Virus record (IMG/VR): IMGVR_UViG_3300045738_002140
Coordinates: 1-64,000 of that record
Length of the DNA stretch: 64,000 bases
Source: a virus
Strand: one strand, 5' to 3'
In this document: positions 41,220-52,780 of the stretch, one piece after another
Position numbering within the stretch: position 1 is the stretch's first letter
Layout: every line of letters begins with the position of its first letter
Notes under the pieces: generated by a model
The model's database searches: none
The model's input: the letters and a program-made list of their open reading frames with translations, nothing else
What the model was told of the DNA's origin: nothing
Position numbers and translations under genes: made by a program

Positions 41220-42718
41220 TATTCTAGAAGGAAGTCTCCGTCATCTTCGCTTATGTCTGAGACGTCTGCGACGCCATCTTCTCTTCTCACTATATCCTCT
41301 AATGTGCCCTTCTCTTCTACTTTAAAATTTCGTATATTAAAATTAAGATAATTTGGCTCTGCTCTTTGAGAGCCGTCTTCTAGGGTCCTTGTAACCATAT
41401 CTCTAAAGCCTGCCGCATCTCTCCCTTGGTATCTAGAGGCAACACATATTAATTTGTGTGTGCCGAAATCTACACCTGTCCTATTGTCTAGATGTTGTTC
41501 GTCTGCTGTCTTGCTTCTAAATATAAAAATATTTCCACCAAACCAAGCTAGTCTATCTGAGCCCGCCAAGGTGGACATATCATCGACAACCTGAGAGCCT
41601 CTTCGGCCCCTGTTCTCCGCTGTTCTGTTCAGTTGGTTGGCTGTCAAGAGGGCTGCCTCGGTTTCCATGCAGCAAGATTTGAGCAGGCTTATCTTGTCTC
41701 CTATGGCTTGGTATTCTTTGTTAAAATCAGACAAGTTTTCACTAGTTATTTTTAAATAGTCGTACACAACAAGGAAGGGGTTCCCTCTTCCTACGTGTTC
41801 ATATTTAAATCTTCTTATCAGGGAGCAAACCTTATCTGAAGACATGTTGCCAACATAGATATGAAAAATATCATGACCCTCCTTGAGGGCTTCGCAGCCT
41901 CTAACCTTTTTAACCATCTCTTCGTTTTTTCTCCAGTTGCCCGACTCGAGCCACCAAGGGTTAATGTCTGTAAGGGCTGCTGATCTTCTGAATTTAACCT
42001 CTTCCGTTGCCATCTCTGTGTCCAAAAAAAGGACCTTACAGTTATTAATTTTTGCGACCCCAAAGGCTACTTCGTTTAGGAATGTGCTTTTGCCCTGCTT
42101 TGGCCTAGAGGCGATTGCGAAAGCCTGCCCAATTCTTAGGCCACCATACAGTCGGTTAAGGCTTTTGAAGGGGGTCGCTAGGCCAATTTCCTTGACCGGA
42201 TTGTTGCCCCTGTCCTCTAGGAGATCGAGTAGGCCCTCCGTCAGCTTGACTGGCTCTTCGCTCTCCGTGTAGCTGTCTACCAGCTTATTGCAAATTTTAT
42301 CTGCGCTCTCTATGATCTGCGAGCACTCCTTGTCTCCATTTTTACGCATGGATTCTTTTAGCTCTTCCCCGATCTTTTCGTAGTCTCTTCTTAGGCTGTA
42401 TTTTTTAAGATCTTTTACCGATTGGATTACTGCACTCCTTTTGATTTGAGTGAAGGCTATGCCGTCTATGTACTCATAGATATCCAAGTCTCCGTTGTAT
42501 TTTATCCCCCAGTTTTTGAGCTGGTCGGCCAAAATTACCTTGTCTGCCTTCTCGTTTTTTAGAAGTGACTTTCTTAGGACACAGAAAATAGTATAATGAA
42601 CTTCGCTGAAAAAATCTGACTCTGATAGGAACTTATCGACCTCTGGGAAAACATCGGGATGATTGATTAAGCCGCCAAGAACATGCTTTTCTAGTTGTAG
42701 TGAATATATATTGCTCAT
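41219..42718 (-). CDS. dnaB: Replicative DNA helicase, DnaB-like
   Basis: LEKHVLGGL N-terminus, Walker A ASRPKQGKST, LDTEM, VYDYL, QLNR. Confidence 0.92.
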   Translation of the reverse strand: MSNIYSLQLEKHVLGGLINHPDVFPEVDKFLSESDFFSEVHYTIFCVLRKSLLKNEKADKVILADQLKNWGIKYNGDLDIYEYIDGIAFTQIKRSAVIQSVKDLKKYSLRRDYEKIGEELKESMRKNGDKECSQIIESADKICNKLVDSYTESEEPVKLTEGLLDLLEDRGNNPVKEIGLATPFKSLNRLYGGLRIGQAFAIASRPKQGKSTFLNEVAFGVAKINNCKVLFLDTEMATEEVKFRRSAALTDINPWWLESGNWRKNEEMVKKVRGCEALKEGHDIFHIYVGNMSSDKVCSLIRRFKYEHVGRGNPFLVVYDYLKITSENLSDFNKEYQAIGDKISLLKSCCMETEAALLTANQLNRTAENRGRRGSQVVDDMSTLAGSDRLAWFGGNIFIFRSKTADEQHLDNRTGVDFGTHKLICVASRYQGRDAAGFRDMVTRTLEDGSQRAEPNYLNFNIRNFKVEEKGTLEDIVRREDGVADVSDISEDDGDFLLE

Positions 42719-42816
42719 GTTTATGATAGCTCCGCGAAGGGATTGAATCTATCATTTTAAAGAGACAATGTGTCGCGGATCTATCAAAAGGTAAGATAAA
42801 AGACCAAAAAAGTCAA
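42719..42816 (-). promoter_or_regulatory. Promoter plus structured leader / inverted repeat upstream of the helicase
   Basis: TTGACT-17-TACCTT; 14-bp inverted repeat (13/14) at 42724-42737 and 42773-42786. Confidence 0.55.
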
Positions 42817-43106
42817 GCGAAATCATCGCCTTCTTCTGGCTCTCTTTCTTCGGGGTCGTCTTCTGGGTCTAGGTTTTCACTCAGGTCGAAAGATCTTGCT
42901 GTGAGCTCTATATTGAGGCCCTCCACAGCCTTCCCCCAGTTTTCAATGTAATATTGAAGGGCCATGGCGTATGTGGGATTGTCGAAGTCGCTATGGACTT
43001 GGGGTAACCCGTCGGTATCTAGGCTAAATAAAATATAACCGCCATTAGAGCATTCATTTATTTGGCCCAGTATCGCTTGGGGGAATACAAACTTTTTGTT
43101 GTCCAC
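42813..43106 (-). CDS. Hypothetical protein with acidic C-terminus
   Basis: 97-aa ORF fitting the tight gene packing; GTG start. Confidence 0.65.
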   Translation of the reverse strand: MDNKKFVFPQAILGQINECSNGGYILFSLDTDGLPQVHSDFDNPTYAMALQYYIENWGKAVEGLNIELTARSFDLSENLDPEDDPEEREPEEGDDFA

Positions 43107-43120
43107 GACAACATTACACC

Positions 43121-43540
43121 CTAAAGAATGGAAACACTAAATGTTTTTAGTATGTATTCTGCTGATAATTTATTAATGTCTTCCTCTTCTATCTCTAGTA
43201 TTTTAAAATTATTTAATTCAAGCCACTCTCTTTTTTGGCAGTCTCTTTTAATTGAGTTAAGGTAGTTTGACGCAGAGTTTTTGTGGAAAAATTTATTGAA
43301 TTCACTGTGTTGTCTTCCTTGTACCTCGACGGCAATTTTTTTAGTTGCGTTTAGTATATCGACCTTCATCAACGTCCCGTACACAGGGAATTCTTCATAT
43401 ACAATTTGGTTTTTCCAGTAGGTTTTTAGGAATTGCTTAACTTTGAATTGTATTTTAGATCTGGATTTTTTGTTCCAGTCTATTAAAAACCTTGAAACAT
43501 TCCTGCTTCGTAGTTTTCCTTTTATGTCATACAGCCTCAT
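43121..43540 (-). CDS. DUF559/Vsr-like endonuclease-fold protein
   Basis: EEFPV.....VD.......AVEVQGRQH...KRD..K..W...N..K. Confidence 0.8.
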   Translation of the reverse strand: MRLYDIKGKLRSRNVSRFLIDWNKKSRSKIQFKVKQFLKTYWKNQIVYEEFPVYGTLMKVDILNATKKIAVEVQGRQHSEFNKFFHKNSASNYLNSIKRDCQKREWLELNNFKILEIEEEDINKLSAEYILKTFSVSIL

Positions 43541-43545
43541 TAAAT

Positions 43546-43974
43546 TGGTGGAAGCGGCGGGAGTCGAACCCGCGTCTTTAAAGCCATCGGCTCAAATGTA
43601 CTACAAGCTTAGTCGGTGTTAATGCTCGCTTGGCGTGTCACCGACAAACGGCCTACGCGAGGTTGTAAGGGATGTATAAATTTTATACTGGGCTCCCTTA
43701 CGTGCTCCAGTTTTTTGCTCGCTATCGACGCCCTAGCTCCTTAACGAGCATCCAGAGTAGGACGGGGTAGGTTATTCTACCAGCAAGAGGGCTTCATCCT
43801 CTACAAAACCGAACTTGGCGAGAATCTCGTCAGCTTCGGCTAGTGAAGGGGCCATCTCCATGTCAACATTAGTGTTGGCATTTATGTTTTTTTGATAGAT
43901 GTTTTTAAGAGGCCAACCATCATCCTCTGCTTGCAATTTGGCGTAAGGTTCTAAATCGAATCCAGTACGCTCCC
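43546..43974 (-). ncRNA. ssrA: tmRNA (429 nt)
   Basis: 5' GGGAGCGUACUGGAUUCGA; 3' GACGCGGGUUCGACUCCCGCCGCUUCCACCA; acceptor stem GGGAGCG/CGCUUCC with G3-U70 and discriminator A; pk1-like AGAGG/CCUCU; AUAAAU-GCC resume context. Confidence 0.95.
43772..43879 (-). other. tmRNA tag reading frame ANTNVDMEMAPSLAEADEILAKFGFVEDEALLLVE*
   Basis: Resume codon GCC follows pk1 and the A-rich AAAAAACAUAAAU; 35 sense codons to UAA. Confidence 0.8.
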
Positions 43975-43981
43975 GTATATT

Positions 43982-44009
43982 ATTATACACAATTATTTAT
44001 TTTCGTCAA
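43982..44009 (-). promoter_or_regulatory. Strong sigma70-like promoter of the tmRNA
   Basis: TTGACG-16-TATAAT, 7 nt before the mature 5' G. Confidence 0.75.
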
Positions 44010-44024
44010 GTTCTTTTATTTACG

Positions 44025-44144
44025 TCATTTCCAGTTGTCTTTGTTCGTTAAGTCACTAATTTTTTTATTGCACCAAAGCAAAACTATGATGCCAACAATT
44101 ATATTAGCCACAAAGATAGTTACTCCTAGCTCTGCGTCGTCCAT
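44025..44144 (-). CDS. Small single-TM membrane protein (39 aa; not in the ORF track)
   Basis: MDDAELGVTIFVANIIVGIIVLLWCNKKISDLTNKDNWK*; GGAG upstream; fills the gap exactly. Confidence 0.55.
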   Translation of the reverse strand: MDDAELGVTIFVANIIVGIIVLLWCNKKISDLTNKDNWK

Positions 44145-44146
44145 AA

Positions 44147-44473
44147 TTACTCTCCCCGGCTAAGAGTTTTGCCGTAGTCAATCAGGTAAAGGTCGTGCGT
44201 TGCCGCCGCAGTCTCGTCGATGATGTCTGCAAATTCAAACATCTCAATCGCTGGCATGTTGTTCTCGCCGTACTTACCGGCTGGCAAGTCCGAATACTTC
44301 GGCACAACGCCTTCGCGGAGCAACGCAATCTTCTTTGCGCTATCTCTGTTGTTCATGGCCTCCATGCCATCATTGGACAGGTCGAGTTCTTTGACTCTTG
44401 TCTGTGTTTCTGCGATATTTTTTTCAAGTCGCTTGATATGGTTGCTAAAAGCAATTTCTGTTTTGTTGTTCAT
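44147..44473 (-). CDS. Hypothetical protein
   Basis: 108-aa ORF in the operon; N-terminal coiled coil. Confidence 0.6.
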   Translation of the reverse strand: MNNKTEIAFSNHIKRLEKNIAETQTRVKELDLSNDGMEAMNNRDSAKKIALLREGVVPKYSDLPAGKYGENNMPAIEMFEFADIIDETAAATHDLYLIDYGKTLSRGE

Positions 44474-44483
44474 AAATTATTGG

Positions 44484-45251
44484 TTAAACCGTTCTTACCC
44501 CTCTCTTTGAGACCACTTTTGTCGCACACTCATTGGCGTAGTTTATCGCTGTTTCTGCATCACCCACCCTTGTCATGGATACTGCTAGTGCAGCTAGGAA
44601 TGTGTCTCCTGCGCCCGACAAATCTTGAGTGACTACTTTCTCTGGTGGCGGATATATTTTACCCATATATTTGCACCCTTTATGCCCTAGGGTTACAATT
44701 ATTTGGTCTGGCCTAGTATAAGTTGATGTCTCCGCTCTGTCTGGTATTAAGTGGTGCCTTAAGTGGGGATTAACTTCAAGCTCGTGCTCGTTTATTTTTA
44801 GAAACTTCAAATTAACAGGCAAATCACAGCGGAGTTTAACTTTGTTGCTATCTAAATAAACATTATCATGATATTGGCATATATCCCTAATGCCACACCT
44901 GCGAAGAAATCCCTTGCCGTAGTCTGAAACTAAAACTGCATCATATTCGCCCCAAGGTACATTTTTGTAACTAAACTCGTCTTCAGCGGCGTCATTTTCG
45001 TCTATTCGAAGTAACATTTGATTTGTTTTAATGTCCACATACCTAGTCTTAAGTATTTCATTAGACTGAGTGATCAGGTCGCATTCTACTCCAAGCGCTT
45101 TTACATTTGCTTGCACATTGGCCGCCATGCCGCCATTGGTTTTCTCTTTTACAGGGACAAATACCGGGACAGGAGCCTCTGGGCACATCCTGTCACATTT
45201 GCCGTAAATAAATATGTCTTTGCAGCTATCTCCTATTGCTAGAAATTTCAT
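44484..45251 (-). CDS. PfkB-family sugar kinase, HldE/RfaE kinase-domain-like
   Basis: IGDSCKD..YG...R..PEAPVPV, GGMAANV, KTR, SDYGKG, DLSGAGDTF. Confidence 0.88.
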   Translation of the reverse strand: MKFLAIGDSCKDIFIYGKCDRMCPEAPVPVFVPVKEKTNGGMAANVQANVKALGVECDLITQSNEILKTRYVDIKTNQMLLRIDENDAAEDEFSYKNVPWGEYDAVLVSDYGKGFLRRCGIRDICQYHDNVYLDSNKVKLRCDLPVNLKFLKINEHELEVNPHLRHHLIPDRAETSTYTRPDQIIVTLGHKGCKYMGKIYPPPEKVVTQDLSGAGDTFLAALAVSMTRVGDAETAINYANECATKVVSKRGVRTV

Positions 45252-45658
45252 TTTAATTTATTTATACACACTTTTTTTCTGAGGGCTGAGGTTGACCAGT
45301 CATGGCTTCTCCTATGATAATATATATCAATGTTCAAAAAATCTCCAGTAAATTTTTTTCCTTCATAGTCGCTTCCTAGTATTCTGATGTCTGGCTCGAG
45401 TATTTTGAGCCATTCTATTAGTTCTTTTTCTGTGTTGTATACTACGACTTCGTCAACATAGCGTATCGCTTCAAGCTGAATCATTCTCTCGGGAAAAGAT
45501 TGTATGGGTTTGTTTTTTTCTGGCCTGTCTATGGTGGGGTCTGTCTGTAGCGCAACGATAAGGTGGTCACACTGAAGGCAGGCGTCTTTTAGCATCAGGC
45601 AATGACCCGCGTGCAGCATGTCGAAGCAGCTGGCAACTATACCAACCTTAGTGCTCAC
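45248..45658 (-). CDS. Cytidylyltransferase-like protein (TagD / glycerol-3-phosphate cytidylyltransferase family)
   Basis: FDMLHAGH, DPT.DRP.KNKP, YVDEV, GSDY, R.H.WSTS. Confidence 0.88.
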   Translation of the reverse strand: MSTKVGIVASCFDMLHAGHCLMLKDACLQCDHLIVALQTDPTIDRPEKNKPIQSFPERMIQLEAIRYVDEVVVYNTEKELIEWLKILEPDIRILGSDYEGKKFTGDFLNIDIYYHRRSHDWSTSALRKKVCINKLK

Positions 45659-45685
45659 TTTTTTCCTTGTATATTATTCATATTA

Positions 45686-45759
45686 TGGAGCGAGCGAAGG
45701 GGATCGAACCCTCATCAAGAGCTTGGAAGGCTCCCGCACTACCGTTGTGCTACACTCGC
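45686..45759 (-). tRNA. tRNA-Gly (anticodon UCC)
   Basis: GCGAGTGTAGCACAACGGTAGTGCGGGAGCCT-TCC-AAGCTCTTGATGAGGGTTCGATCCCCTTCGCTCGCTCCA; full cloverleaf, U73, encoded CCA. Confidence 0.95.
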
Positions 45760-46190
45760 TATATTTTTTTAAGTCCTGTGTATTCTGAGGAGGAGCGAAT
45801 CTTTTGTCCTAGTCCATCAACCATTTCTATTTTTAATTCTTTGCATACTTTTGCTTCTGGTATTTCTTCTTCTGTTCTGTCTCCTCCATTAGCAAAAATA
45901 TCAGGCTTGCATAGCCTGAGCGATTCGCAAACTGTTTGGTCTTCGTCAACAGCAAGGAATGCTTCGTCTACGCACCTGAGGGCACGGACTATCTTAAGGC
46001 GATCCTCTTCTTTCATAAATGATTTACCTTTCTTTAGGGAAGCCTGTTTGTCTGTGTTAACTATGACTACGAGCTTAGTAAAGAAGGGCTTGTCTCCTAA
46101 GGCTGCTGCTTGTTCAAGATATTCTAGGTGTCCCACGTGGAGGGGGTCAAAGTAGCCGCTTACTGCGATGGTTATAAGTCTTGCTTCCAT
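45759..46190 (-). CDS. Nucleotidyltransferase (HIGH / cytidylyltransferase family, RfaE domain II-like)
   Basis: SGYFDPLHVGHLEYL, VNTD...KKG, PDIFANGGDR, SSS; start taken at MEARL. Confidence 0.88.
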   Translation of the reverse strand: MEARLITIAVSGYFDPLHVGHLEYLEQAAALGDKPFFTKLVVIVNTDKQASLKKGKSFMKEEDRLKIVRALRCVDEAFLAVDEDQTVCESLRLCKPDIFANGGDRTEEEIPEAKVCKELKIEMVDGLGQKIRSSSEYTGLKKI

Positions 46191-46195
46191 AATGT

Positions 46196-47293
46196 TCACG
46201 CTACGTCTTTCACTATTGAATCTATAGTTGCGTTTGTTACTTGAGGCATGCAGATGAGGTGGGCGGTGTTCTTCTCTACTGCTAGTTTCCATTTTCTGCT
46301 AATTTTTTCATCTGGCCTAGGGAAAACTACTGTAATCGCGTGGTCATTTTTCCAAGCTTTCACCCCTGCTTCGTTAAACTTTGAAACAGCATACTCTGCG
46401 GTTCTTGTGCACCGCCTGACTATTCTTTTGAAGCCGTTGAAGCCGTGTTTTTTTATAGCATACCATAAGAGAATGGGGGTGAACCCATTTCTCGAGCCGC
46501 TGAGTGTACTGTCTAATGAGCCCACATACTCTACATCCCTAGAAACCCTGCCGACGTTACTTTTAAGTGCAAGAACTACGCCGCAGGGAATAGGCGAACC
46601 TATAAATTTGTGTCCACTTATGGATATGCTTTGAACCCCTGTTGTAAAATCAAATTTAGGAGAGCCCTCAATGAAGGGCAGCGTCATCCCTGCTAGGGCC
46701 GCATCAACATGTATATAATATTCCGGTATTGCTAATTGTTCTAGTACCTTTTTTATTTCTGTTATATCGTCGAACCCCTCTTTCATTGTCGTGCCTATGT
46801 TTGCAAAAATAACAGGAGGTGCAGAGCGCCAAGTGGAGAGCATGTTCCTGAAGTCGTCATAATCCATTTCTCCGTTACGTCTTGATTTAATCATGACGTT
46901 TTCCATGTTCAATACCCTTATGTTTTTGCTCACGCTATAGTGGGTGTCTTGGGAATAGTAGACTACCCCCTTGGGGTAAAGTTCCCTAGCTAAGTAAAGT
47001 CCATATAAATTGCCTTCCGTTCCACCATTGGTAACATATCCCCAGTAATTATCAGAAGGAGCGTTGTGAAGCTCTGCGAACCAATGCAGCACCTCTTGTT
47101 CGAATTCTCTGGAGTCTAGCCCATAGTAGCTTGAGGAAAATGGGTCTCCTACATTGTTAAGGGGGATAGACAAAAAATCAGATAGCTCAGAATAATCAAA
47201 AGAAGTATTTACAGGGTATCCTATAAACTTTTCTTTTTCTTCCTTCAAGCTTTCGTAAAACTTTTTAAGTTTTTTTATATCTGATTTGTTCAT
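46196..47293 (-). CDS. Group II PLP-dependent decarboxylase (histidine/serine decarboxylase family)
   Basis: GYP.N..FDY, NNVGDPF, WGYVTNGGTEGN, HYS, HVDAAL, SGHKFIGSPIPCG (PLP lysine), GSRNG. Confidence 0.92.
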   Translation of the reverse strand: MNKSDIKKLKKFYESLKEEKEKFIGYPVNTSFDYSELSDFLSIPLNNVGDPFSSSYYGLDSREFEQEVLHWFAELHNAPSDNYWGYVTNGGTEGNLYGLYLARELYPKGVVYYSQDTHYSVSKNIRVLNMENVMIKSRRNGEMDYDDFRNMLSTWRSAPPVIFANIGTTMKEGFDDITEIKKVLEQLAIPEYYIHVDAALAGMTLPFIEGSPKFDFTTGVQSISISGHKFIGSPIPCGVVLALKSNVGRVSRDVEYVGSLDSTLSGSRNGFTPILLWYAIKKHGFNGFKRIVRRCTRTAEYAVSKFNEAGVKAWKNDHAITVVFPRPDEKISRKWKLAVEKNTAHLICMPQVTNATIDSIVKDVA

Positions 47294-47369
47294 GGCACTC
47301 TCGCTGGGACTCGAACCCAGAACCCTCTGTTTAGAAGACAGATGCTCTATCCAATTGAGCTACGAGAGC
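47293..47369 (-). tRNA. tRNA-Arg (anticodon UCU)
   Basis: GCTCTCGTAGCTCAATTGGATAGAGCATCTGTCT-TCT-AAACAGAGGGTTCTGGGTTCGAGTCCCAGCGAGAGTGCCA. Confidence 0.95.
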
Positions 47370-47378
47370 ATAATCTTC

Positions 47379-48467
47379 TTAGAACTTTTTGAGGGTTTCT
47401 CTAAATTTATGAAATAAATATTTTCCTATCTCTTTGTTCTCCTCAAGGTATTTGCTAAAATTGTCTATGCCTTGGTGCTGTTTTCTGAACTCTAGTTCTG
47501 TTTTTTCTTTAACTTCTTCTATTATCTCGTCTGAGATGGTCACCCATGCCCCTTTGGCTGTGGCCATCCCCCACATAAGCATCATGTCTGCCACTTCTTT
47601 TTCTACCCAAATACTTTTTCCGTTTTTTCTTTCGTATCGAATGGGGTATCTTACGCCCACTCCTGTTTTTTCATTAGGGGTTTTCCTGAAAATAACTTTG
47701 CACCAATGACCAAGCTTGTCCCCTTTTCCGTTCGGCTGGGTAGAAATAATATCTTTAAGATAGCGTGGTTGAAACTCTAAAATCCAATCACTGTAATGCA
47801 ACATAGCGTTACCTCCGGATGCATTCGTCACTTGAGGGTCGGACTTTTCATAGGGATTAATTTTGATTGTGCTTCTTACTTGGGATATCATGTAGCAAAT
47901 GTGGCCTCTGGTTGATAAGCCGAGGGCCATTCTCCTAAGGAAGTCAGAGCTCAGTAGTGCGCCCCCGCCTACTTTTAGGGCCTCTTCTGATCCTTTTTCT
48001 AAGTCTCCACGAGGGATGAGGGAATCCATGGAATCTATGATAAACATATATCGAGTATCTGATGGGTTGTCTTTGACCATCTGGCGCATAAGGTTTATTA
48101 CTGTTTCATAAACATTAGATTTAAACACAAACCATTTCTCTGGGGAAGTGTCTATGCCCATTCTTTCTATAAGGTCTTGGGATAATCTTCCTTCCGCTTT
48201 CACGTAGATGACCATGCTGTTTTCCATCTTCTGAAAGTTCTTGGCGAAGGCGAGACCACAGGAGGTTTTCCCCCCCTCGGTGACTCCTGTGGCTCGCACA
48301 ACGCCGGGCTTTATCCCGCCCCCCATTTCGATATCTAGCAAAAGACTTCCGCTAGATACCGCATAGATTCTTTCTTCTTCAAAATTATAATGATCCCCTT
48401 TATGCTGTTCAAGGTACGCGTCGATTTGCTGGAGGGGCGTAATATTATCTGTTTTCTTTTTTGTCAT
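47379..48467 (-). CDS. recA: RecA/UvsX-like recombinase
   Basis: SSGSLLLDIEMGGG..PG, GGKTS, IIDSMDSL, ISQVR, SGGNA..HYS. Confidence 0.88.
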   Translation of the reverse strand: MTKKKTDNITPLQQIDAYLEQHKGDHYNFEEERIYAVSSGSLLLDIEMGGGIKPGVVRATGVTEGGKTSCGLAFAKNFQKMENSMVIYVKAEGRLSQDLIERMGIDTSPEKWFVFKSNVYETVINLMRQMVKDNPSDTRYMFIIDSMDSLIPRGDLEKGSEEALKVGGGALLSSDFLRRMALGLSTRGHICYMISQVRSTIKINPYEKSDPQVTNASGGNAMLHYSDWILEFQPRYLKDIISTQPNGKGDKLGHWCKVIFRKTPNEKTGVGVRYPIRYERKNGKSIWVEKEVADMMLMWGMATAKGAWVTISDEIIEEVKEKTELEFRKQHQGIDNFSKYLEENKEIGKYLFHKFRETLKKF

Positions 48468-48838
48468 TTTTTCTTAATCATGAATTCCATCAGGTTGGAC
48501 GGGGGGAGCTTGACTTCTGCGTCTTCTCCGATTTTTGTAGCATTAAGTTTAACTTCTGCTATTTTTTGAAGTGGAGCTTGGGCCCCTTTCATCTTCTGAG
48601 AGTGTTGACATAGGGACATGTTCCCCTCTGTTGTCAGAAACCAAGAAAGAGACGTGGGCCTTTCTTCGATGTATAGGGTTTTCCAGAACTTTTTTTCTGG
48701 GAATTTTTGGAGTAGCTTTTTGGCTATTTTAATTTCTTTTGGCCAATTTATGTTGTTCGCAGAATCGTCCCACCTAGTTTTGGAGACCAGCTTAGATACT
48801 ATCATTTTGCATTTTTGATGATTTGTTAGTTCAGCCAT
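48464..48838 (-). CDS. Hypothetical protein
   Basis: 124-aa ORF overlapping its neighbours in the operon. Confidence 0.65.
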   Translation of the reverse strand: MAELTNHQKCKMIVSKLVSKTRWDDSANNINWPKEIKIAKKLLQKFPEKKFWKTLYIEERPTSLSWFLTTEGNMSLCQHSQKMKGAQAPLQKIAEVKLNATKIGEDAEVKLPPSNLMEFMIKKK

Positions 48839-49880
48839 CTAGTAGTCCTATGTCATATAGTACCATAGTTTTAACCAGATTGTCAAATGAAACTTTGGGT
48901 TTCCAGCCTAGTTCCTCGCGTATTGGGGAGGAGTCTCCAAGCAGAAGCTCTACGTCTGCTGGCCTATAAAACTTTTTGTTTATTTTCAACAAAGTGACTG
49001 AATCAGTGTTGCTTTCTTCATTTAGATTATAAGTTTCATTTAGGCCTTCCCCTTGCCAGTGGCCGTATATGTTGGCCGTTTCAAAGGCAAGCTCTACGAA
49101 TTCTCTGATCGAGTGCGCTTCTCCGCTTGACAGTATATAATCTTTAGGTTTGTCTTGGTTAAGCATTAGCCAAACACCTTCAACAAAGTCTCTGCTGTCG
49201 CTCCAGTCTCGCTTTGCGTCTAGGTTGCCGAGCTCTAACGGGGTGATTGATTCTCCGTTTTCTATTTGTTTGTTTATTCTTGCGACCGATTTAGTTATCT
49301 TTCTTGTCACAAACTCCTCGCCCCTTTTTGTCCCTTCGTGATTAAATAGAATGCCATGAATGGCATACAGGTTGTGGGACTCCTTGTAAACTTTGACTAA
49401 GTGTCTTGCTGCAGCCTTAGATGCACCGTATGGGCTTCTGGGTTTTATGGGGTGGTTTATGTCTTGCGGAGAGTAGTCTACGTCCCCCCATTCTTCGCTG
49501 CTTCCTGCGCTGTAAAAGCGGCAGTTGTCCTTGAACTTACGAAGGCCCTCTAGGCATCTAAGGACACCTATGGCGTTCACGTCCATGACTTGAAACGGCA
49601 TGTCCCAGCTGCAGCCAACGAAAGAGTTGGCCGCAAAGTTAACAAGGTAATCTGGTTGTATATCTTTTATAAGCCGGTCTATGCTAACGTCGTCAGAAAG
49701 ATCTCCATAAACAAGATGGAAATTAGCGTGGTCTTTAAAGGCTTGTATGTTGACGAAGTTAGGGTTAGCACTTCTGCGCATCATGCCGTAAACTTTTACG
49801 TCGGACACGTCTTGGAGTAGGTACTCCGCCATATTTGCCCCGTCTTGTCCGAGTATGCCTGTTATCAGTGCTTTTTTCAT
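48831..49880 (-). CDS. gmd: GDP-mannose 4,6-dehydratase
   Basis: KKALITGILGQDG, PRSPYGASK, GILFNHE...RGEEFVTRKI, LGNLDAKRDW, FYRPADVELLLGD. Confidence 0.95.
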   Translation of the reverse strand: MKKALITGILGQDGANMAEYLLQDVSDVKVYGMMRRSANPNFVNIQAFKDHANFHLVYGDLSDDVSIDRLIKDIQPDYLVNFAANSFVGCSWDMPFQVMDVNAIGVLRCLEGLRKFKDNCRFYSAGSSEEWGDVDYSPQDINHPIKPRSPYGASKAAARHLVKVYKESHNLYAIHGILFNHEGTKRGEEFVTRKITKSVARINKQIENGESITPLELGNLDAKRDWSDSRDFVEGVWLMLNQDKPKDYILSSGEAHSIREFVELAFETANIYGHWQGEGLNETYNLNEESNTDSVTLLKINKKFYRPADVELLLGDSSPIREELGWKPKVSFDNLVKTMVLYDIGLLDG

Positions 49881-49882
49881 GA

Positions 49883-50836
49883 CTAAAACTGTGGCCCCTC
49901 TTGTTCTTCCCCTTTGTCTGTTAGATATTTATTTATGGGGCCGATGTAGTCTGTTTCGGTTTGTTCTTTGTCTTTCGTATCTAAGTATATCCTAAAGCTC
50001 CAGTTAATTCTATTTTTATCTATTTCTTTAACAAAGTCTTGCCCTAGTACTTTGTATCTAAAGTAGTCTTTGAGGTTTACTTCTAGGTCGACGGCGTTTA
50101 TAAACTCGTCAGAAAAATCATTTTTTCTATAAAAATCTTCTAAGGAATCTAAAGTAGAAAGGTCTAGCCCCAGCGCCTTTTCGCAGTGAAGCCTAAACCT
50201 GAGTCGATTTGCTTCGTGAAAGTTGTGGACCTCTTGACCGAACCTCCCGTAAAGTAATTGGCAGTGATTTGACCGACCATAGACATAGTAGTATTTGGCT
50301 GGGTGAGCAAGTGCCGGTATAGCTGGGTCATCAAATCGGTTGCTACGTATGCATTTTTGTTTCTCTTCTTCTTCAAAAAATAAAACCTTAGACACTATAC
50401 CCTGAAGCCCCCAATGTGGGTTTGGAAAGAAAAACATATGATCAAAATATTTTGCTAAATGAATTTTGCTGTTCATGTTGATTGCCCCTATATTGTTCGA
50501 GTCAAGTTCTTCAATTTGTTCCCTTAAGGACGCTGCCCATTCTATGTTTACTCTGTCTGGGGAGTCTGCCAGAACAAACCAGTCTCCGTTGGACATGGTG
50601 CCCGCCCTCATGAATTCGTTCATCTGGAAGTCGTGGTCGTTCGTCCATTTTCTTCTTACTATTTTGCCTTGTTTTTTTCTATCATTCAAAAGTTCGTAGG
50701 TTCCGTCTTTGGAGAAGCCGTCAGTAAATACTAAGCCATCGAAGTGTTCCATAACCTCTGGGTTAGTCATCTCTTCTATATCCTTCAGCCTGTCTTGGGT
50801 TATCCCGCATAGCCATAGCCTTGGTTTGTTAATCAT
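49883..50836 (-). CDS. Divergent GT-A/GT2-like protein
   Basis: DGFSKDGTYELL...W...H..Q.N......GDWFVLADSPDR. Confidence 0.6.
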   Translation of the reverse strand: MINKPRLWLCGITQDRLKDIEEMTNPEVMEHFDGLVFTDGFSKDGTYELLNDRKKQGKIVRRKWTNDHDFQMNEFMRAGTMSNGDWFVLADSPDRVNIEWAASLREQIEELDSNNIGAINMNSKIHLAKYFDHMFFFPNPHWGLQGIVSKVLFFEEEEKQKCIRSNRFDDPAIPALAHPAKYYYVYGRSNHCQLLYGRFGQEVHNFHEANRLRFRLHCEKALGLDLSTLDSLEDFYRKNDFSDEFINAVDLEVNLKDYFRYKVLGQDFVKEIDKNRINWSFRIYLDTKDKEQTETDYIGPINKYLTDKGEEQEGPQF

Positions 50837-51590
50837 AATTTAAATTTGGTTTTTGTTTGTTGTGTTTTTCGTAATAGTTTTCGTTAAACTCTAGCTCGCT
50901 CGTGTCGTAGTTCCATAGATAGCTGCAGAAATCCTCTCCCCATCTGTATTTTTGGTATTCGCATTTCATTTTGCTTGTTTCATTATTGAGCCAAGTCATG
51001 TGCCTTATGTGGGCTATGTGTCTGGGAATTTCTAGGTGCGACGTGACTTTATAATCTGAACCATCATTGTAAATAACATCGTCGTCATAATAAAGTCGAT
51101 CAATCCCGCCATTGCACTTCATGTTAAATATCCTTGGTGGGCAAAAGCCGTCCACCCAAGTGTTGTCATTAAATAGGTAGTTCTTAAAGTTTATACTAAA
51201 CCAAGTTATAAATTTATTGAATTCAACGAACTTTATTATTTGTTTAATTTGATCCACCGTGTAGATCTCATCTAGCCCCAGTAGCCACATGTAATCGACG
51301 TCTTGTTTTTTAAGGTAATCTAGGCATATACTCTTTGAGTCTGCTTCGTCTAGTGGCTTTCTCTCTATGTGTAAAAAATCAATAATTTTTTCGTCATTGA
51401 GTTCTTTGAGTATTGACTCGGTATCGTCTGAGGACTTAGGTGGAAAACCAAGCTCTTGGTTCTCTTTAAAGCATACGTGTACGACGCTAATGGTCGTGTC
51501 TGATTCTTCTTTAAATTCGCCCCAAGGCCTAAGGGCTTCTTCTAAATACTCTGCGCAGTTATAAGCTGAAGATATTATTCCTATTTTCAT
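50829..51590 (-). CDS. Divergent GT2-like glycosyltransferase
   Basis: ISSAYNCAEYL, SSDDTESIL, DYMWLLGLDEIY, PPRIF. Confidence 0.65.
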   Translation of the reverse strand: MKIGIISSAYNCAEYLEEALRPWGEFKEESDTTISVVHVCFKENQELGFPPKSSDDTESILKELNDEKIIDFLHIERKPLDEADSKSICLDYLKKQDVDYMWLLGLDEIYTVDQIKQIIKFVEFNKFITWFSINFKNYLFNDNTWVDGFCPPRIFNMKCNGGIDRLYYDDDVIYNDGSDYKVTSHLEIPRHIAHIRHMTWLNNETSKMKCEYQKYRWGEDFCSYLWNYDTSELEFNENYYEKHNKQKPNLNYD

Positions 51591-52780
51591 TATACTTGGT
51601 TTAAATAATCTGTTAGGTTTAGTATCTGGTCTTCTGACACTTGGCTGTGGAGTCCTACATATAATCCATTTTTGTGCAAATATTCTGCGTTCTTGAAGAG
51701 CTTGTAGTCTTCGTATTGCTTATAGCAGGTATGTCTTAGTATGTTGCCGCTAATTATTGGTCTGTATTCTATGTTTTTTTCTTTAAGATAATTTTTTATT
51801 AATTTTGATTTTCTTTTTTTGGATATAATTGGTAGACAAAACGGGACATTAACCCTATCGTTTACGTTGTCTGGCAATAGGTATTTACTTACGTCTAGGT
51901 TGGACGAATAGGTATTGTATAATTGTAGCCTATCGTAAGCATAGTCGTATATTCTCTTGAAATCTAAAAGCCCCATGAACGCCGCAATGTTTGTGCTTCT
52001 GTAGTTCCCACCGAGGGTATTAAAATCAAATGATGGATCGACTAGTTTGTTTGATAGGATTTTGGCATAGTCTTTAGACAAGTCGTATCTGTTGAGCTCT
52101 CTCGTAAGGCCATGACTCCTACCTAAAACATAAAAGACAAACTCCTCCTCGTCATTAGTGAAGATCATTCCTCCTTCTGATCCCGTGGTGGTCTGGTGGC
52201 CAAAGTATACGGAGGTGGAGGACGTCGGGCCAGAGCACACGTGTCTGTAGTCGTAGATATCTTCGTCGTAATATGAGCCAAAAGAGTTTTCGCAATTGTC
52301 TAGTTTTAATTGTACGCCGTACTTTTTGCATATGTTTTCGGCGCGAGGTATGTCTGGGGTAAGCCCTATAAGCGAAGTAAGGAAAACTGTATTTACTGAG
52401 TGGTTTTTAGCTTTAAGATAGTTTTCTAGTAGGTCTAGGTCAATAGAAAAATCTTTTAAATTTATATCAATAAATTTTGGTGTGAACCCATTGTTTATCC
52501 AAGGGCTAATAGAGGTTTGCCAAGTGACAGAGGGAAAAACTACTATTGGTTTTTTGGGATTAAGCCTCTTGGCGTATTGAGCTATCAATTCGTTGGCCGT
52601 GGACCCGCTGCTGACCATGAGTGCGTATTTAGATTTAGTATATTCTTTCCATCCCTCTTCATACTTTAGGACGTACTTGTCTTGAGTCCACCTGTTTGAT
52701 GGGTTAAGAAAAAATTTACAAATTTTAAGTCTATCTGACCAAGTAAAATTAGAATCATTTAAATGCCAGTTAAACTTCAT
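51590..52780 (-). CDS. DegT-family PLP enzyme, ColD/E1-type 3-dehydratase-like (His in place of the catalytic Lys)
   Basis: VSSGSTAN, PSVTWQT, DNCENSFG, SVYFGHQTTTGSEGGM, RSHG, YRPIISGN. Confidence 0.8.
   Translation of the reverse strand: MKFNWHLNDSNFTWSDRLKICKFFLNPSNRWTQDKYVLKYEEGWKEYTKSKYALMVSSGSTANELIAQYAKRLNPKKPIVVFPSVTWQTSISPWINNGFTPKFIDINLKDFSIDLDLLENYLKAKNHSVNTVFLTSLIGLTPDIPRAENICKKYGVQLKLDNCENSFGSYYDEDIYDYRHVCSGPTSSTSVYFGHQTTTGSEGGMIFTNDEEEFVFYVLGRSHGLTRELNRYDLSKDYAKILSNKLVDPSFDFNTLGGNYRSTNIAAFMGLLDFKRIYDYAYDRLQLYNTYSSNLDVSKYLLPDNVNDRVNVPFCLPIISKKRKSKLIKNYLKEKNIEYRPIISGNILRHTCYKQYEDYKLFKNAEYLHKNGLYVGLHSQVSEDQILNLTDYLNQV

Follow-up and report, generated by a model that had tools for sequence, protein, structure and literature searches.

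What becomes of a gene whose start codon begins on the very last base of a tRNA, and does such an arrangement serve the phage that carries it? The question is raised by the minus strand of a viral genome (IMG/VR record IMGVR_UViG_3300045738_002140; linear, 114 kb, CheckV completeness 66%, hereafter G000), of which the first 64 kb (64,000 nucleotides, hereafter the window) were analysed. Here, a tRNA-Arg runs into a histidine-decarboxylase-like gene, and a cytidylyltransferase-like gene (CTa) runs into a tRNA-Gly. The initial annotation of this stretch had claimed a one-nucleotide overlap at each of these junctions and had read them as tRNA punctuation resembling that of mitochondria, possibly linked to the transfer-messenger RNA (tmRNA) that the phage encodes. 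Both overlaps exist, and we favour, with moderate confidence, the view that they are by-product junction scars of gene shuffling and compaction without a dedicated regulatory function, the transcripts being partitioned between tRNA-Arg and decarboxylase.

A search of INPHARED DNA with the window returned matches to the tRNAs only, and at the protein level the matches of its recombinase stay below 30% identity, while the decarboxylase reaches 46%; no cultured relative was therefore found, and the phage family is uncultured and marine. The locus was compared with its closest relative (G004, 60% complete; locus L004), with G002 and with the 100% complete G003, with 80 loci retained from 353 IMG/VR relatives of the recombinase gene, and with decarboxylase homologues at four viral and 45 metagenome loci (38 of the latter with the N-terminus on the contig, seven without it).

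Two bases with two owners

The tRNA-Arg(UCU) at 47293..47369, which like every gene near this site lies on the minus strand, was recovered by ARAGORN (tct) and by Rfam (69.6 bits) and encodes its own CCA: the acceptor stem ends in ...CGAGAGT, followed by the discriminator G, the CCA and then directly TGAACAAA... Its A76 (47293) doubles as the first base of the ATG that opens the decarboxylase gene (46196..47293, 365 amino acids; Pfam PF00282, E 3.7e-25), the minus strand reading ...CGAGAGTGCCATGAACAAA across the junction. CTa (45759..46190, 143 amino acids from its likely start ATG 46190; Pfam PF01467, E 9.1e-17) ends in ...AAA ATA TAG (TAG at 45761..45759), and the G of this stop codon (45759) is G1 of tRNA-Gly(UCC) (45686..45759; ARAGORN tcc; Rfam 65.8 bits), which also encodes CCA, after a discriminator U (...AAAAAAATATAGCGAGTGTAG). 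The tmRNA, the CCA of which ends at 43546 in the Rfam RF00023 match, is followed five nucleotides later (spacer ATTTA) by ATG 43540. All three junctions are as the initial annotation had placed them. The CTa frame itself (45750-45761, minus strand) reads on as TAG CGA GTG TAG, with a second in-frame stop nine nucleotides past the first that comes from the conserved U8-A9-G10 of the tRNA, and read-through of the shared TAG would therefore add only three residues.

The letters by themselves establish a point of logic. A76 can go to a mature tRNA-Arg or to the decarboxylase AUG, never to both from one RNA molecule, which is what the initial annotation had argued in stating that a full tRNA-Arg takes away the start codon; its companion argument, that an RNase P cut at G1 of tRNA-Gly would leave a CTa message ending in UA, holds likewise.

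Overlaps of this kind are rare in general, and the shortest way of disposing of this one would be to call it an annotation artefact, in which the true start of the decarboxylase lies at another codon or one tRNA has decayed into a pseudogene, with nothing functional overlapping; the CCATG behind the tRNA-Arg of another relative (L002, described below), which opens a mere three-codon frame, speaks for such caution. The decarboxylase start nevertheless withstands scrutiny. No start codon precedes ATG 47293 in the open frame, the homologous codon opens the decarboxylases of relatives as ATG, TTG or GTG, and an annotated Hdc from an Acinetobacter-phage record (46% identity) can be aligned with query residues 1-364. 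When the window is set beside L004, synonymous differences are seen within codons 2-16, among them two serine family switches (TCA/AGC and AGC/TCC), and L004 has TTA in place of the sole nearby alternative start, the TTG at codon 16. A start of the decarboxylase elsewhere, which would have undone the proposal, is contradicted by this combination of a first start in frame, a conserved position and coding constraint on codons 2-16, and we take ATG 47293 to be the true start. The product, which scores 88.9 bits against PF00282 (Pyridoxal_deC; cut-off 27 bits), is by homology a Group II pyridoxal phosphate (PLP) decarboxylase of the histidine-decarboxylase-like type, its substrate side being predicted.

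The tRNAs are no less sound. They score 66-70 bits against an Rfam cut-off of 29 bits, and the acceptor, anticodon and T stems of 11 tRNA-Arg homologues differ in sequence yet remain complementary through compensatory changes; when the tRNAs were folded together with flanking sequence, the cloverleaf was not recovered as the minimum free energy structure. In the comparison with L004, the decarboxylase has a dN of 0.094 with synonymous sites that are saturated (the NG86 estimate is undefined) and has therefore been under purifying selection since the lineages split, the CCATG is kept, and the tRNA-Arg differs at 2 of 77 positions, though synonymous sites are saturated. By these comparative measures, tRNA-Arg and decarboxylase are both functional and under purifying selection, and the overlap is not a matter of chance since a conserved 365-codon open reading frame (ORF) begins exactly on A76. 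The artefact explanation is largely refuted, and we consider it barely credible.

Conservation and origin of the overlaps

If the start overlap were a device on which these phages depend, relatives might be expected to share it; the initial annotation had proposed the same comparison, and the overlaps turned out to be largely absent. A maximum likelihood tree of the decarboxylases (39 rows, midpoint-rooted; 10 of 49 candidate rows, which were partial matches, were omitted, as was L003, which matches L001 at the decarboxylase junction) places the CCA/ATG overlap in one shallow clade of three rows (the window, L004 and L333; support 97/96), in which the L004 and L333 proteins are identical. Only one of the 38 metagenome loci, L333, has the tRNA-Arg joined to the decarboxylase ATG. 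The aligned first codon in these 38 is ATG in seven (L333 included), TTG in 10 and GTG in eight, and the start lies a few codons off in 13. The common TTG-start decarboxylases overlap the stop of another upstream gene and have a GGAAG-type ribosome-binding site, and the sister group of the tRNA-fused clade consists of 12 rows (one ATG, one GTG and 10 TTG starts), likewise behind another gene. The tRNA-fused junction reads CCA+TGAATAAAAG, and the TTG forms read TTGAATAAAAG (e.g. in L345), which is compatible with a fused start that would have arisen when a TTG-start gene joined the CCA, A76 replacing its first T; a change in the opposite direction would be compatible with the midpoint-rooted tree as well. 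Judged by its place in the tree, the start overlap is derived and of single-clade origin.

The same tRNA-Arg is found in other company. In L177, L179, L181 and L019 it is followed by a 6-nucleotide spacer and an unrelated gene of 157-160 amino acids, and the presence of different genes behind one tRNA therefore marks its 3' edge as a recurrent recombination boundary. In L002 (2428-2520, genome G002), tRNA-Arg is followed by TG (CCATGAGATTATGA...), the resulting ATG frame has three codons, and the real gene starts 7 nucleotides past the CCA; this CCATG may be a vestige of an overlap or a chance occurrence.

The history of the stop overlap can be read from L004, in which the order is recombinase, tRNA-Arg, decarboxylase, transferase and kinase, with neither the tRNA-Gly nor the second transferase (CTb) of the window. 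The CTa orthologue of L004 ends in ...CTTAAATGA, its TGA overlapping the ATG of the kinase, which comes directly after it. The tRNA-Gly and CTb of the window sit exactly at this transferase/kinase joint, and the window CTa runs two codons further, to the first in-frame stop, which is made of TA and tRNA-Gly G1. The G004 record (60% complete) yielded no tRNA-Gly(TCC), and its CTb homologue lies ~45 kb away (L110). In the more distant L189, a transferase ends in TAA, four nucleotides before a tRNA-Gly(TCC), and the adjacency of the two therefore predates their overlap, which among the relatives compared occurs in the window only. The initial annotation had seen the decarboxylase and CTa as a cassette bracketed by tRNAs, as if it were a deliberate unit; with no tRNA-Gly in L004 and decarboxylases behind other genes elsewhere, it is thus no conserved unit.

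Stop overlaps are nonetheless not confined to this site. In G003, the TAG of a small conserved lipoprotein-like gene (L009 1289-1501; signal peptide, LLAGC lipobox) supplies with its G the G1 of a tRNA-Ile(TAT), which is a second, independent stop overlap in the family; a homologue of this gene (74% identity) lies in G000 at 106423-106617, outside the window.

Start overlaps, for their part, can be found in other phages. In the unrelated viral contig L267 (12379-12933, plus strand), a deoxynucleoside monophosphate (dNMP) kinase gene, the P-loop of which begins at residue 5, takes the first base of its ATG from the final A of a tRNA-Thr CCA; this is the same use of A76 as in the window, in another phage and with another tRNA and another gene. 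In L221 (5443-6168, minus strand), also unrelated, a tRNA-Ser CCA may share its A with a ThyX ATG, although the ATGs further on in the frame, at residues 5 and 11, are possible starts too. A scan of IMG/VR for a tRNA T-arm followed by CCATG gave at least 92 matches in 80 loci, 73 of which are ARAGORN tRNAs ending on that A. Among the matches listed, an ORF of at least 100 amino acids starts from that ATG in nine of 73, against 13% for all ATGs of the same loci (an imperfect control, which includes internal ATGs of real genes), and there is therefore no general enrichment of such ORFs among them. A search of the literature, which did not cover supplementary files, found no description of tRNA punctuation or of tRNA/start-codon overlap in phages.

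Scars or punctuation

The overlaps have to be seen against a family-wide habit of placing tRNAs and tmRNAs tightly among genes. The site behind the RecA/UvsX-like recombinase gene (47379..48467, minus strand; Pfam PF00154, E 3.1e-17), the TAA of which lies 9 nucleotides upstream of tRNA-Arg G1, is a variable hotspot of tRNA/tmRNA cargo (loci L013-L092): of the 80 loci kept, 19 have a tmRNA there and three have tRNAs. Distances were surveyed at 38 non-redundant CCA-encoding tRNA/tmRNA junctions from the family loci and the genome, excluding duplicates and tRNAs less than 100 nucleotides from the start or less than 250 nucleotides from the end of a locus; many of the tmRNA junctions are homologous to one another and hence not independent. 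From the CCA, the next same-strand start overlaps by one nucleotide at two junctions and lies 0-5 nucleotides away at two, 6-15 at 16, 16-30 at three and beyond 30 at 14, with none found at one. The previous same-strand stop overlaps G1 by one nucleotide at two junctions and lies 0-5 nucleotides before it at eight, 6-15 at four, 16-30 at six and beyond 30 at 14, with none found at four. A start thus follows within 15 nucleotides at 20 of 38 junctions and a stop precedes within 15 at 14 of 38 (two overlapping in each case), and in 12 of the 19 tmRNA loci an ATG follows the tmRNA within 15 nucleotides. Past the CCA the trailer is usually (A/U)UUU, with T at positions 2, 3 and 4 in 25, 26 and 23 of the 38; the tRNA-Arg of the window is joined to its neighbour (UGAACAAA) without such a trailer.

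How do the overlaps compare with known systems? In mitochondrial punctuation, tRNAs flank most genes of a genome-long transcript, incomplete stop codons are completed by polyadenylation, and animal mitochondria do not encode the CCA, which is added after RNase Z cleavage. The window resembles this in that its tRNAs abut coding regions and that their excision would leave a UA stop and a leaderless message. It differs in that G000 has three tRNAs and one tmRNA in 114 kb with ~124 ORFs, so that they do not flank most genes, in that the CCA is encoded in each of its three tRNAs and in its tmRNA, as at the 38 family junctions, and in that the arrangement is not conserved, relatives keeping spacers of 4-15 nucleotides. 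The resemblance is limited to two junctions, and the three defining features tested fail.

Closer to home, short gene-gene overlaps such as ATGA and TAATG are a feature of compact bacterial and phage operons. G000 is itself compact (~95% coding by crude ORF calls), and of its 101 same-strand gene junctions, again by crude calls, 22 have a 4-nucleotide and six a 1-nucleotide overlap (28 in all, the same sizes), with gaps of 0-5 nucleotides at 18 and of 6-15 at three. The likeness ends there, in that two overlapping proteins come from one intact RNA, whereas a base shared by tRNA and protein gene serves one mature molecule. E. coli has operons in which tRNAs precede an mRNA, namely tyrT-tpr and thrU-tyrU-glyT-thrT-tufB, and we know of no counterpart there of a tRNA sharing a base with a downstream start codon.

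The nearest model in the opposite order is E. coli secG-leuU, for which excerpts of PMC2241853 describe a 14-nucleotide spacer, a single RNase P cut that separates the secG mRNA from leuU, a half-life of less than 30 s for secG mRNA once separated, and an RNase E cut 1-2 nucleotides past the leuU CCA within AAUU; cuts just after the CCA also occur in E. coli proline tRNAs (excerpt of PMC5291269). The window would share the placing of a protein gene and a CCA-encoding tRNA on one transcript and, presumably, a single RNase P cut at G1, an RNase E cut in an A/U-rich stretch past the CCA and a short-lived upstream message. What differs is the spacer, 14 nucleotides there and -1 here, so that the cut at tRNA-Gly would remove part of the stop codon.

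From these elements, the view that the overlaps are junction scars can be put together as follows. Two ordinary functional tRNAs for the most-used arginine and glycine codons would be cistrons of one long minus-strand operon, into which cargo genes recombined at the very edges of tRNA genes, at the hotspot downstream of the recombinase. The decarboxylase would have been joined directly to the CCA, possibly from a TTG-start ancestor, with A76 supplying the ATG, and CTa would have lost its own stop and come to end at the first stop met in its frame, formed by TA and tRNA-Gly G1. Host RNA polymerase would make one polycistronic precursor, which host RNase P would cut at each tRNA G1 and of which host nucleases would mature the 3' ends, while the flanking proteins would be translated mainly from short-lived uncut RNA. 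Any one RNA molecule would then give either a full-length tRNA-Arg or a decarboxylase message fit for translation, and the RNase P cut at tRNA-Gly would end the useful life of the CTa message. This simple partition is favoured since A76 can be in one product only and since cuts just past the CCA, or deeper within the A-rich first codons, would decapitate the decarboxylase message. Losing the G of the stop codon would cost little because upstream messages would die so fast anyway, if matters are as in E. coli, and such rapid decay would explain why stop overlaps were tolerated twice in the family.

Several observations sit less easily with scars. The overlap survived a divergence that saturated synonymous sites, which fits neutrality or low cost and a selected function equally. 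Spacers of 6-15 nucleotides are the mode from tRNA to gene (16 of 38) and rare from gene to gene (3 of 101), a hint that a trailer is usually required, and a zero spacer is thereby harder to dismiss as cost-free. The tRNA-Arg junction is without the (A/U)UUU trailer, so its 3' processing must differ from that of its relatives. The gene calls are, moreover, heuristic, with a start-choice rule biased towards compact junctions, and co-transcription, the order of processing and the RNA species that is translated are all inferred from sequence.

Short spacers also speak for a bolder explanation, in which excision of tRNAs and tmRNA makes, family-wide, the 5' ends of downstream messages with short leaders and without Shine-Dalgarno (SD) sequences, and a cut of tRNA-Arg at or before C75/A76 gives a leaderless AUG decarboxylase mRNA, the host CCA-adding enzyme completing the tRNA. 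The next start is, after all, within 15 nucleotides of the CCA at just over half of the junctions; all starts read within that distance are ATG, against TTG or GTG for the decarboxylase in 18 of 38 other contexts; and an SD-like core is found upstream of 22% of G000 genes, compared with a background of 11-14%. The (A/U)UUU trailers resemble the AAUU that RNase E cuts just past the leuU CCA (excerpts of PMC2241853), cuts between the two Cs of an encoded CCA are reported in Propionibacterium acnes (excerpt of PMC3848588), and PF01743, the CCA-adding-enzyme family, was found in all 10 bacterial control genomes. The ATG-only pattern, however, spans few independent gene families, and the window overlap is an outlier to the family rule, without the usual trailer. 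Nor does the phage bring a repair enzyme of its own: PF01743 was absent from G000 (66% complete), G002, G003 (100% complete) and G004. We regard this explanation as possible, if unlikely, and its wider, mitochondria-like form, which the initial annotation had suggested, draws no support from a comparison in which the overlap is confined to one shallow clade.

Purpose might instead be sought at the other tRNA, where RNase P, by cutting at G1 of tRNA-Gly, would remove the G of the TAG and leave a non-stop CTa mRNA ending in UA; the phage tmRNA would then add a long non-degrading tag to the CTa protein or simply clear the stalled ribosomes. The hotspot also harbours the tmRNA, 1.7 kb downstream, and operon-embedded tRNAs and tmRNA are both features of the family. 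Yet 19 of 80 relatives' loci have a tmRNA and no stop overlap, and the transferase of the nearest relative has a normal TGA stop and no tRNA-Gly. Moreover, E. coli mRNA upstream of a co-transcribed tRNA is gone less than 30 s after the cut despite an intact stop and a 14-nucleotide spacer (excerpts of PMC2241853), and since such a message decays that soon anyway, a missing stop G adds little. The link of the overlaps to the tmRNA, as first suggested, finds no support among these relatives, and a purposeful connection looks highly improbable. A broader scheme would combine the two ideas, with excision of tRNAs and tmRNA as the normal 5'-end maker for downstream SD-less, short-leader messages, the window as the limiting case in which a cut inside the CCA gives a leaderless decarboxylase mRNA and the host repairs the CCA, and the tmRNA mopping up ribosomes on truncated upstream messages; as a whole we find it quite doubtful.

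Neighbourhood and meaning

The remaining features of the locus would suit a tightly packed operon, with gaps of -1, -1, 9 and 27 nucleotides around the two tRNAs on their one shared strand. The decarboxylase stops with a TGA at 46196, and ATG 46190 of CTa comes 5 nucleotides on. Behind tRNA-Gly, a 27-nucleotide A/U-rich trailer (45659..45685, by sequence reading) contains an AAGGA ahead of GTG 45658, the start of CTb (45248..45658, minus strand, 136 amino acids; Pfam PF01467, E 1.4e-13), a second cytidylyltransferase-like gene, the stop of which overlaps (ATGA) the ATG of the next gene in the presumed operon, a PfkB-family sugar kinase gene (44484..45251, minus strand; Pfam PF00294). The decarboxylase/cytidylyltransferase/kinase set (44484-47293) resembles an amine-activation route (decarboxylate, phosphorylate, make a cytidine diphosphate derivative), and CTa, CTb and the kinase, next to a histidine/serine-decarboxylase-like enzyme, could serve the decoration of a phage-encoded glycan. 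Within the window, the hotspot spans 43500-47380, its 3.4-kb block from tRNA-Arg to tmRNA holding the decarboxylase, two nucleotidyltransferases, the kinase and a 108-amino-acid ORF.

A promoter scan of 42500..52000 gave as best-scoring site a sigma-70-type promoter (TTGACG-16-TATAAT, 11 of 12 matches; 43982..44009, minus strand) that lies in front of the phage tmRNA (43546..43974, minus strand; Rfam RF00023, 134.3 bits) and ends 7 nucleotides ahead of its G1, a place at which relatives have a GTGTAA-ATA...TTTAT motif. The primary tmRNA transcript may have a 5' end that is already nearly mature, and the ORF behind the tmRNA would be on the same transcript. Directly upstream of the tRNAs, the same scan and reading of the sequence revealed no comparable site, and a promoter inside or ahead of them was considered and rejected, none being convincing. 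No clear terminator was seen from recombinase to kinase, nor between the tRNAs: the scan returned 10 terminator-like matches against a shuffle mean of 9.0, with one on the minus strand between recombinase and kinase, inside CTa.

The conserved ORF directly behind the tmRNA (43121..43540, minus strand, 139 amino acids, from the ORF list) recurs as an ORF of 138-139 amino acids (MRLYNI...) in L032-L064 and stands 5-15 nucleotides behind the tmRNA in 11 of the 19 loci. Pfam gave no match to this ORF at E<=0.01; in its nearest ESM-Atlas clusters, DUF559 (a Vsr-like endonuclease fold) is found on 12-21% of members, which is a lead only, and the ORF may be a homing-type nuclease that helps to make the cargo hotspot.

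Each of the three tRNAs of G000 reads the commonest codon of its own codon family (AGA, 46% of arginine codons; GGA, 32% of glycine codons; ATA, 54%). A codon link between the tRNAs and the genes that they enclose was rejected, as AGA and GGA are common genome-wide without enrichment in the cassette.

Read plainly, the locus illustrates neatly, in a natural setting, to what extent a mixed tRNA-mRNA operon can be compressed in a phage: a single base serves both a tRNA terminus and a start or stop codon, in an arrangement that has been stable while synonymous sites saturated, and it warns annotators against trimming such genes. The part most worth testing is the family-wide tight embedding of tRNAs and tmRNA. 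If the bolder reading were true, the ends of mRNAs and the sites at which translation begins would, in an abundant marine phage group, be fixed by the processing of tRNAs and tmRNA, the phage tmRNA would be tied to by-products of that processing, and bacterial viruses would have a counterpart of mitochondrial tRNA punctuation.

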